DNA of 64,000 bases from Candidatus Altimarinota bacterium (GTDB lineage: Bacteria > Patescibacteriota > Gracilibacteria > BD1-5 > UBA2023): contig JAYRRZ010000040.1 of the NCBI GenBank assembly GCA_041909865.1, forward strand, positions 10,984 through 74,983, read 5' to 3'. This document shows positions 40,449 to 42,659 of the stretch, in pieces. The notes below the pieces were generated by a model that was not told the origin of the DNA, made no database searches, and worked only from the letters and a program-made list of their open reading frames with translations. The position numbers and the translations under genes are program-made. Within the stretch, counting starts at the first letter, position 1. Each line of letters starts with the position of its first letter.

Positions 40449-42659
40449 TTATAGAAGCATCCCTCGGAACTTATCAATATCTAGAATATTTACTCCAAGT
40501 TCTTTTGCTTTTTCGAGTTTGGATCCTGCTTCGGAGCCAACGATGAGGTAGTCCAGTTTACCTGAAACCGAAGTACGGATTTCTCCTCCGTGTTTCTCTA
40601 TGAGTTCATGTATTTCGTCACGAGAAATTCCATCAAATGAACCAGTTACACAAAAGGATTTTCGATTAATTGGACTAGGTGATTCGATGACTGGAGGAGA
40701 AGATTCAGTAGGGAATGTAAGCTCCACAAAAAATCGTTCAACAAGTTCTCTATTTTCTTCCATATATTCCACAAAAGAACGAGCCGTTTCTGGTCAAATA
40801 TCTTTCATTCCACAAAGTTCTTCTTCGGTCAGGGAAAAGAGGGTTTTTGTTATTTCGAGCGCAGTGTAACGAAGAAAGAAATCTTGTTCTCTAGTTTCTC
40901 GGGCAGGATTTCTCATCGTTGCCATAGATCTAGGCAACTCTGTCGAAATAACAAAATGTGCATATTTCTTTTTTGCCTCCTTTGTAATCACTTTTGCTGT
41001 CTTTTTCCCAATATTTGGTATTCCTAGTGATACCAAGGCTCTCTCAAGGGTTGTATTTCGAGCTTTTTCTATTGATTCCAGGAGATTATTTATGGATTTT
41101 TCTTTATATCCTTCGAGTTCAAAGAATCGTTCTCTATATGTGTGGAGATGAAATATTGAGGCAAAATCCGTAATCCACCCGAGTTCAAGGAGGAGTTCTA
41201 TTTGTTTGGTTCCGAGGCCATCGATATTGAGCCCTTGTTTTCAGACAAATACCTCCAGTCTTCCTTGGATTTGGGCAGGGCAGTGTTTGTTTGGACAAAA
41301 TATTGCCACTTTTCCCTCTTCTTGTTCGAGGTTTGTTCCACAGATTGGACATATTTCTGGTGGGAATACCTCTTTTTCTTCACCGCTTCGTACTTCTGAA
41401 ATCACGGAAACAATCTCAGGAATCACCTCTCCAGCACGGATGATATAGACATAATCTCATTCTCGAACTCATTTTTTGGAGAGTTCATCATAGTTATGGA
41501 GCGTGGCCCGTTTTACGATTACTCCAGTAACTTCTACGGGTTCAAGATTGGCTACTGGAGTGACAGTTCCGGTACGTCCTACTGAGTGTTCGATAGAGAT
41601 AACTCTCGTTCTGACTTGTTTCGCAGGGAATTTGTAGGCTATCGCATACCGAGGATGATGTTCTGTTGCTCCGAGGAGAGGCCAGAGTGACATGTCATTG
41701 AGTTTCAAAACCATCCCATCAATATCAAAATCAAAATACTCAAGTCCTGTTTTGAGGAATTTTTCTGTCTCTTTCTCAATAATCCGTGAGAGATTCTCGA
41801 TTCAGTTTATCTGATTAAAAGGAAAATCTGCTCGCTCAAATCCCCAACTATGAAGAAGATTCATGAGACTGTTATATTTATGTATTTTGGAATCACTTCC
41901 TGAATCACCTCGTTCTATCTGAGGGATTGAGTACGCAAAGAACTCAAGATTTCTCAATCTCGTTATAATGGGATCGAGCTGTCTGAGTGATCCGCTCGCA
42001 GCATTTCTCGGGTTTGCGAAGAGCTTCTCACCAGTTTTGAGGCGTTCCTGATTCACCTTTTCAAAGGTCGTCCGACTCATCATTACTTCTCATCGGATTT
42101 CCATTCTTTCGATATTGGCTAATTCCTTAATTTCTTTCGGGATATTCTGTATTTCCCAGGCTCACAAGGTAACATCCTCTCACTCTACTCAGCTTCCACG
42201 AGTAATGGCTCGGTGGAGTTTCCCATACTGGTAGACGAGTGCGAGCCCGAGTCCATCGTATTTTGGTTGGATGTAATATGGAAATGTCGAAGGAGATTGT
42301 TCCTTCAGTACATTGCGCATACGAGTTTCAAAATCTCTCACCTCATCTCCATTGTAGGTATTATCCAGTGATATCATCGGATAGAGATGCTTCACTTTCT
42401 GGAATTGTTCACTCACAAGGATAGCGAGTCGGGCAGTCGGAGAATCTTCATCGATCATATCATGGTCAGCCTCTGCTCTCGCAAGGGCATGAAAAAGTAC
42501 ATCATACTCAACGTCGGAGATAATAGGAGAGTCCTCTTCGTAGTAGAGTCGATTGTGCTCACGGATAATTTCACGGAGCGGGAAGATGTCACCCGCCTTG
42601 AGTAGATGGATGCGCTTCAGGTATTCAGATGAGAGTGAGAGGAGTTCGGCTTTTTGCAT
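40449..42659 (-). CDS. ligA: NAD-dependent DNA ligase
   Basis: Six ORF-track pieces (40449, 40794, 41241, 41469, 41802, 42189) all share one frame and are joined by TGA. Adenylation site KYDG (IQPKYDGLG), Zn finger CPICGT...CPNKHCPAQ, HhH region, C-terminal BRCT. Confidence 0.9.
40896..40948 (-). repeat. S-type hairpin repeat inserted in frame inside ligA
   Basis: The minus strand reads gttATTTCgacagaGTTGCCtagatctatGGCAACgatgaGAAATcc. It encodes [16 protein letters not shown] within an extra segment of about 40 aa in the HhH region. Confidence 0.55.

Follow-up and report, generated by a model that had tools for sequence, protein, structure and literature searches.

How an essential gene comes to hold a palindromic repeat inside its reading frame is the question raised by a DNA ligase gene of Candidatus Altimarinota bacterium, a member of the Gracilibacteria. 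The DNA analysed here, called the window throughout, is a 64,000-nucleotide (nt) stretch of contig JAYRRZ010000040.1 (GenBank assembly GCA_041909865.1, positions 10,984 to 74,983, forward strand), and its ligA gene for an NAD+-dependent DNA ligase lies at 40449–42659 on the minus strand. A preliminary description of this DNA had reported a hairpin repeat in frame within the helix-hairpin-helix (HhH) region of LigA. In our view the segment is very probably a non-autonomous palindromic mobile repeat, which entered a LigA linker in a recent ancestor of this species-level lineage and has been tolerated there in frame.

As host of the insert, ligA has stayed intact and is subject to purifying selection. 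Translation with table 25, together with Pfam, defines a product of 736 amino acids plus stop, and the complete open reading frame (ORF) reads through nine in-frame TGA codons as glycine; with table 11 the same region falls apart into fragments. The product carries the full set of Pfam domains expected of a LigA (DNA_ligase_aden, OB, ZBD, HHH_2, BRCT and Nlig-Ia). Outside the insert, comparison with the copy in L032, one of three Logan assemblies that carry the same gene, showed synonymous differences at 41 of 699 codons and nonsynonymous ones at 26, a dN/dS of roughly 0.2, and the host gene is therefore functional. A further close relative, L035, departs from the window beyond 42269, and its synonymous and nonsynonymous counts, being unreliable, were left unused.

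The insert lies between the third HhH motif (codons GIPNIG, 41007–41024, minus strand), upstream of it, and the fourth (codons MKDIGPET, the Gly being a TGA codon, 40785–40808, minus strand), downstream. Its position in frame was described correctly: the ORF is continuous, the peptide quoted in the preliminary description is present, and the motifs on both sides are intact. The size had been put at about 40 amino acids, and the segment is indeed there, but it measures 37 extra residues (F569–K605, codons 40845–40955). Subtracting these 37 from the linker leaves exactly the length of the short-form orthologs in code-25 translations. Relative to T. filiformis and E. coli LigA, the region has 49–52 residues rather than 10–13, and the alignments break exactly there. 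The inserted DNA is a palindromic element of 112 nt (40845–40956, minus strand) that is open in just two of its six frames. The ligA gene uses one of these two, and its 37 inserted codons are free of stops and lead on to a normal LigA C-terminus. Because ligA is essential, only insertions that keep the frame and contain no stop survive.

The hairpin originally described is a genuine repeat with nested stems, but it is only half of the element, which consists of two hairpin units in opposite orientation (tail-to-tail) with their conserved 5′ ends outward. Unit A, located with a covariance model of the repeat family (R1), lies at 40841–40887 on the plus strand and reads GTTATTTC-(21-nt loop)-GAAATC, with the family 5′ flank TTTTTGT. 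Its core, TTATTTC-(21 nt)-GAAATC, occupies 40850–40883 of the plus strand, and it shows a 17/18-nt match to a canonical copy at 22604–22620. Unit B is the hairpin of the preliminary description; the string is present on the minus strand as claimed, but its exact position is 40906–40952, so that the coordinates first given (40896–40948) were 4–10 nt off. The core of unit B, TTATTTC-(32 nt)-GAAATC, spans 40907–40951 on the minus strand, with an outer stem of ATTTC (40945–40949) and GAAAT (40908–40912) and, nested within the loop, an inner stem of GTTGCC (40933–40938) and GGCAAC (40918–40923). Between the inverted units is a spacer (40888–40905) whose ends, AGAAATC and GATTTCT, pair in the predicted fold. 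Since the two copies are inverted, their conserved 5′ ends form 14-nt terminal inverted repeats. A sensitive self-comparison placed these, TTTTGTTATTTCGA, at 40845–40858 on the plus strand (unit A side) and 40943–40956 on the minus strand (unit B side); they match perfectly and form the closing stem of the predicted fold. Folded as DNA, a 116-nt stretch over the insert reached −20.1 kcal/mol (z = −5.0), and as RNA −31.7 kcal/mol (z = −4.5), with 0 of 200 shuffles as good in either case.

Both units belong to a repeat family that is dispersed over the window. The family consensus is (T)TTCT-GTCAT-NNN-loop-NNN-ATC(C) with a variable stem, and a mobile unit would accordingly comprise a 5′ flank TTTCT, GTCAT, a variable stem of 5 bp, a loop, the stem complement and ATC. 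Besides the insert units, the 64 kb hold about 13 other copies, in the form of singlets, direct arrays (18271–18436 and 40106–40220) and inverted doublets. Across 18 canonical units GTCAT and ATC are invariant, while three of the five stem pairs vary on both sides yet still pair; all 90 cells are paired, a covariation that is in part circular, the copies having been selected for pairing. R1 was built on canonical units, none of them taken from the window's ligA, and gave unit A a score of 20.8 bits, with E = 1.3e-3 for the 64 kb. Unit B escaped an R1 search of the window at thresholds as loose as E ≤ 10, its 32-nt loop being the reason. The conserved ends of unit B, ATTTCGA...GAGAAATC, have exactly four occurrences in the window, three in canonical intergenic units and one in unit B itself, where 0.05 occurrences would be expected by chance and 0 of 100 shuffles reached four. 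Unit B is therefore a real member of the family with an expanded, nested loop. An Rfam search of the region returned no family at gathering or E-value thresholds, and a literature search on Gracilibacteria palindromes and the repeat core strings found no description of a GTCAT-stem-loop-stem-ATC element, only CRISPR papers and unrelated primers.

Assemblers can be misled by short palindromic repeats, and a repeat spliced into ligA during assembly or binning would give a similar picture. We attach scarcely any credence to this explanation. The insert recurs at the same junctions in the Logan assemblies L032, L033 and L034 (96–99% identical) and in L035 (contig WBZM01003680.1, 99% identical), which come from different runs and projects and differ by a few substitutions; counting the window, five independent assemblies carry it, and assembly error is therefore excluded. 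The same junctions are also found in a LigA protein, P0009, and the reading frame is preserved throughout.

The segment is confined to the window's own lineage. A scan of species-representative genomes gave 29 Gracilibacteria ligA loci, 26 of which were compared as code-25 translations, and the segment is absent from 25 of these 26, including the sister locus L001, with which the window's LigA groups in a neighbour-joining tree. Among 120 further LigA proteins the insert occurs only in P0009 (93% identical); P0010, P0011 and P0012, whose LigA is 74–78% identical, are without it. The absence from these orthologs means that the segment is not an ancestral linker, an alternative that the preliminary description had itself raised alongside assembly error and that is no more upheld than the latter. 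Entry would thus fall after the split from the 74–78% identical relatives and before the divergence of the 93–99% identical strains.

Since its arrival the insert has been evolving faster than the rest of ligA, under relaxed constraint. In L034, 5 of 112 nt differ within the insert and 5 of 856 in the sequence around it (Fisher p = 0.003), and between the window and P0009 the insert is 86% identical where the rest is 93% identical. The segment would be translated as part of LigA, with an effect that is probably near-neutral.

Insertion into this linker has happened more than once. In insert-free lineages the linker between HhH motifs 3 and 4 has a conserved length of 30–34 residues, mostly 33. 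Most of 116 Gracilibacteria LigAs lack the window's segment. In 21 of the 116 the linker is longer by 12 residues or more, and at least 14 have linkers of 51–76 residues instead of 25–34, scattered beside insert-free relatives; L016, for instance, carries an insert that its sister L013 lacks. About 20 scattered lineages have hairpin doublets other than the window's in this linker. The conserved linker of about 33 residues and the insert-free sisters together make repeated entry likelier than one ancient insertion followed by many losses. At least two types of element are found at the site. The first consists of canonical GTCATTGCGAGG doublets encoding peptides of the form VIARN...DVAIQ...GLL...SQ-TGA-Q, for example in L037–L039. 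The second, to which the window's element belongs, encodes FVIS/VMSS...EQDFS...VEMT and is carried by the window and P0009, L036 and P0045, L016 and P0066, and P0023. The L036 unit has the same nested architecture as unit B and is 76% identical to it, and six of the 12 differences make up three compensatory pairs, by which ATTTC/GAAAT has become ATATC/GATAT and GTTGCC/GGCAAC has become GTCACC/GGTGAC. Allelic transfer of a whole linker between lineages was considered as well and is ruled out by the dissimilar flanks of the window and L036 elements.

These type II elements are what an ancient insert would have to explain, that is, a single early entry into Gracilibacteria with the hairpins kept by selection in the four carrier groups and deleted elsewhere. 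The elements of the window, L036 and L016 are homologous and share site, orientation and frame, and the compensatory pairs just described would fit long retention. The ISYQLS of the standard linker resembles the LSYQTSVE, SSYRIPVE and LRYTALE found within elements, and unit-like codons stand at some empty sites (GTCATCGCGAAGAA in L004). Nonetheless, independent and imprecise deletions would not recreate a conserved linker of 30–34 residues, the four type II carriers lie at dispersed positions in the tree with insert-free relatives next to each of them, and the perfect 14-nt terminal repeat of the window's copy would be unlikely after so much divergence. Moreover, a second, unrelated-looking type occupies the same site at six or more other positions in the tree, so that repeated entry certainly happens. 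We therefore regard an ancient insert as distinctly unlikely.

The codons at these empty sites deserve mention in their own right. In L004 the sequence cited above, which encodes VIAKK, matches a canonical unit exactly over that unit's first 14 nt, and in L006 and L014 the codons for K-V/L-I-A-K-K after GKKTAK are nearly identical to the start of a canonical unit. More generally, the host codons GTC ATY GCG ARG, which encode V-I-A-K/R of the HhH3 helix, resemble the element terminus. We hypothesise that such codons are a hint of the remnant of an earlier element, of a landing pad or of homology-guided entry. The linker motif QLSAISYQLS, which follows GKKTGK or GKKTAK, is in turn encoded by tandem repeats (about 3.5 copies of CAGCTAT in L017 and two of a 14-nt unit in L013), and this slippage-prone tract falls exactly at the insertion hot spot.

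An AlphaFold model bears on how the insert is accommodated and on whether it has acquired a role. The model covers the TGA-free LigA residues 474–621 (40797–41240), is based on 111 homologs and has a mean pLDDT of 85.8, with values of 89–96 in the HhH core helices and about 61 at the tip of the insert. Its best structural matches are LigA structures, and with 5tt5 (E. coli LigA) the core superposes at 1.7 Å over 87 columns. The insert (segment residues ~96–132) is modelled as extensions of two helices, H79–99 and H112–136, and is predicted to be a protruding helical hairpin, a shape supported by two insert-bearing sequences only. On the question posed in the preliminary description, whether the insert is a surface loop, the predicted position is at the surface and appears compatible with the host fold. 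The insert would be tolerated because only two surface helices are lengthened and the DNA-binding HhH hairpins stay intact.

The same model could be taken to favour exaptation, in which selection keeps the insert as a new LigA surface or as an mRNA hairpin that tunes the expression or stability of ligA. What is predicted is not a disordered loop but an ordered helical hairpin, both stems are preserved between the window and L036 by compensatory changes, the RNA fold is strong (z = −4.5), and the linker has been occupied repeatedly across the clade. On the other hand, most lineages, the sister included, do without the insert, which changes faster than the remaining gene; the site holds highly varied sequences that fall into at least two types; the insert peptide matches no Pfam family; and the modelled shape draws on just two aligned sequences. 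Taken together, we judge exaptation about as unlikely as an ancient insert.

Where the inserted copy came from is a separate matter. An array of three same-family units lies at 40106–40220 on the plus strand (R1 hits at 40106, 40140 and 40183) in the intergenic DNA 230–340 nt past the ligA stop, and is a possible local source of units. Duplication-inversion, templated repair or gene conversion from this downstream array could then have produced the insert without any transposition machinery. Arrays of the family adjoin the 3′ end of ligA here, and units stand immediately downstream of it in L001, L016 and L023 as well, just past the stop. Within the loci L001–L029, which were chosen solely for LigA homology and consist of ligA with 3-kb flanks (ligA making up roughly one quarter of their length), 15 of 17 model hits (E < 0.01) fall inside ligA, so that the units are about 20 times as dense there as in the genes on either side (trigger factor, SecA, L25 and type II secretion E/F). 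The upstream host codons mimic the unit terminus, and the insertion was seemingly accompanied by the loss of about seven host residues. Against a local origin, the family is dispersed over the window as singlets, arrays and doublets and is found in an unlinked gene, and the downstream array holds no copy matching unit A or unit B. The proposal moreover concerns only the mechanism of copying and leaves membership of the repeat family undisputed. We consider it very improbable.

The array is part of a larger arrangement. It is adjoined by a repeat module of ~150–180 nt (40231–40414, plus strand), with a second copy at 2987–3167 (86–95% identity). A composite repeat of ~300 nt, made up of a hairpin-unit array, a GTACTTTT...AAAAGTAC hairpin and the repeat module, occurs three times in the window (2895–3170, 18260–18570 and 40100–40414), and two of its copies lie directly 3′ of minus-strand genes, the ORF at 3184–4260 and ligA. 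A larger mobile element, a 3′ untranslated region and a small RNA are all conceivable identities for it.

If the insert is a mobile repeat, as we favour, its mobilisation most likely took place in trans on a single-stranded or cruciform hairpin, by analogy with REP (repetitive extragenic palindromic) elements and REPIN doublets. Several observations weigh against this reading of the segment. The net gain over the nearest relatives is 30 residues, not 37, and either about seven host residues were lost or the linker already differed in length. No transposase or RAYT-like gene was found among the 18 window ORFs scanned against Pfam. There is no direct repeat indicating a target-site duplication in the flanks, which end in GCACA and resume with ACCCT, and codon-level alignments with the insert-free sisters define no clean empty site because the linker flanks are too diverged. 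The inner palindrome of unit B has no second locus in the window or in the metagenome collection, only another ligA copy; the exact composite with the GTTGCC palindrome is thus single-copy and restricted to ligA, and transposition of this very copy is presumptive. The compensatory changes between the window and L036 could mean that the hairpin is selected in place, and that the insert is translated within LigA is something we infer.

Recurrence in other sites and genes argues for the wider phenomenon. Orthologs carry in-frame inserts at two further places in LigA, around residues 126 and 285. Each insert in L005, L014 and L016 consists, as DNA, of an inverted doublet whose termini are GTCAT...ATGAC, as do all ortholog inserts of the GTCAT family that were examined as DNA (also L037, L038 and L039). 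The inserts of L019 LigA at sites 126 and 285 belong to a different hairpin family. Within the window, a second gene is affected: the ORF at 24123–24944 (plus strand), a conserved Gracilibacteria hypothetical without a Pfam match, holds a canonical in-frame doublet at 24497–24596, which encodes RFHHRDQSEMKRGDSDIMNMRTGLPHSSQGQRQ with an in-frame TGA included. Its homologs are mostly of about 250 residues with a short loop, and about 19 of 94 have similar repeat-derived segments in that loop. The suggestion that colonisation like that of the Rickettsia palindromic elements (RPEs) occurs in a code-25 genome of the Candidate Phyla Radiation is thereby borne out, by the further LigA sites and orthologs and by this second gene.

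Other genes and linkers show related features. In tmk (49411–50244, plus strand) SLQPSPLGEGVSTASPLGRRGDGGVK stands just after the P-loop of thymidylate kinase; it looks like a different hairpin family (PSPxGEG), and the same kind of sequence forms the L019 LigA inserts. A single hairpin unit, always on the minus strand, occurs inside ligA in the linker between the HhH and BRCT domains throughout a species group (L004, 4844–4878; L006, 4841–4875; L008, 4837–4872; L019, 2603–2638; L023, 4853–4887), and looks like an older insertion kept as coding sequence. A signal peptidase I homolog (60866–61723, plus strand) matches Peptidase_S26 positions 3–164 over residues 30–243, some 50 residues beyond the profile, and may carry another insertion. 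Elsewhere a hairpin doublet at 25978–26039 starts 2 nt past the stop of ruvC (25503–25976, plus strand). The long minus-strand ORF at 25425–26057, which reads through this doublet and was considered as a host of an in-frame unit, proved spurious, the actual gene being ruvC, and is an example of a false ORF generated by the repeats.

Reassignment of TGA matters to how the repeats are read. The frame used by the canonical linker doublets turns the invariant terminus (...CAATGAC) into an in-frame TGA, which is glycine in code 25 and appears as SQWQ (W) in code-4 gene calls. Such doublets are present in the ligA of L037, L038 and L039 and in P0015, P0030, P0033, P0036, P0041, P0057, P0085 and P0091. 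Further in-frame TGA codons occur in the ORF at 24123 (CAA TGA CAG) and at site 126 of L016 (GAA TGA AGC), and the window's ligA copy has none. Under the standard code, the TGA-containing copies would truncate the host protein, lethally so at the LigA linker. Tentatively, and with more doubt than conviction, we suggest that the doublets may be site-selective and home to a few linkers, three in LigA and one in the family of the ORF at 24123, with host-codon mimicry or landing-pad remnants as the possible guides and with recoding allowing the invariant ATGAC end to be read in all three frames.

In structure the family has more in common with REP/REPIN doublets than with RPEs. Mobilisation by RAYT (Y1/HUH) transposases is ascribed to REP elements, BIMEs and REPIN doublets in accounts attributed to Bertels and Rainey in 2011 and to Nunvar et al. 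in 2010. REPs are extragenic by definition and have a conserved motif of the GTAG type. Like them, the present family is built of short, imperfect hairpins in which a 5′ motif is conserved while the stems vary and covary. It also shares with them the occurrence as singlets, tandem arrays and inverted doublets that can fold into one long hairpin and the lack of an obvious target-site duplication. It differs in being also intragenic, in its motif (GTCAT...ATC) and in that the scanned window ORFs include no RAYT. Since many copies, that in the window's ligA among them, lie within genes, we have not filed the family as strict REP.

That palindromic repeats can colonise ORFs in frame is known from the RPEs (review PMC10969869). 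According to the part of that review that summarises Ogata et al. (2000), RPEs are ~100–150 bp long, are present in many copies in a small genome and lie in frame in unrelated, often essential genes. The ligA element resembles them as a palindrome of like size in frame in an essential gene, with a peptide thought to be compatible with the host fold. However, its host is a gracilibacterium using code 25, the likeness is one of phenomenon with no evidence of sequence relatedness, and we do not file it as an RPE. It is also a doublet of short inverted units that occur as singlets and direct arrays too, one protein linker has been struck repeatedly in many lineages, and some copies are read through TGA. 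[quoted passage not shown] The likeness lies in small size, non-autonomy, terminal inverted repeats and an occasional intragenic position with an open frame, but MITEs normally share the repeats of a parent insertion sequence and create target-site duplications, and neither such a parent nor a duplication is visible here. The segment is thus a REPIN/RPE-like selfish element in a permissive linker, a case of a known phenomenon from a phylum and a repeat family that are both new to it, the family being defined by GTCAT-stem-loop-stem-ATC.

In-frame selfish palindromes in essential genes have mainly been documented in Rickettsia; here they are recurrent and clade-wide in bacteria of the Candidate Phyla Radiation that have reassigned a stop codon, and the repeated use of one linker and the read-through of TGA add to the interest. 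For LigA they amount to a natural tolerance experiment, in which three sites accept insertions of 25–50 residues. The repeats are also a cause of annotation and alignment errors, in the form of split HHH domains, fragmented-looking genes and spurious repeat-made ORFs. Recoding and selfish DNA are linked in that many copies are read via TGA and would be truncating under the standard code. Should the elements indeed home to selected sites, they would be a major and continuing source of new surface helices in code-25 proteomes.

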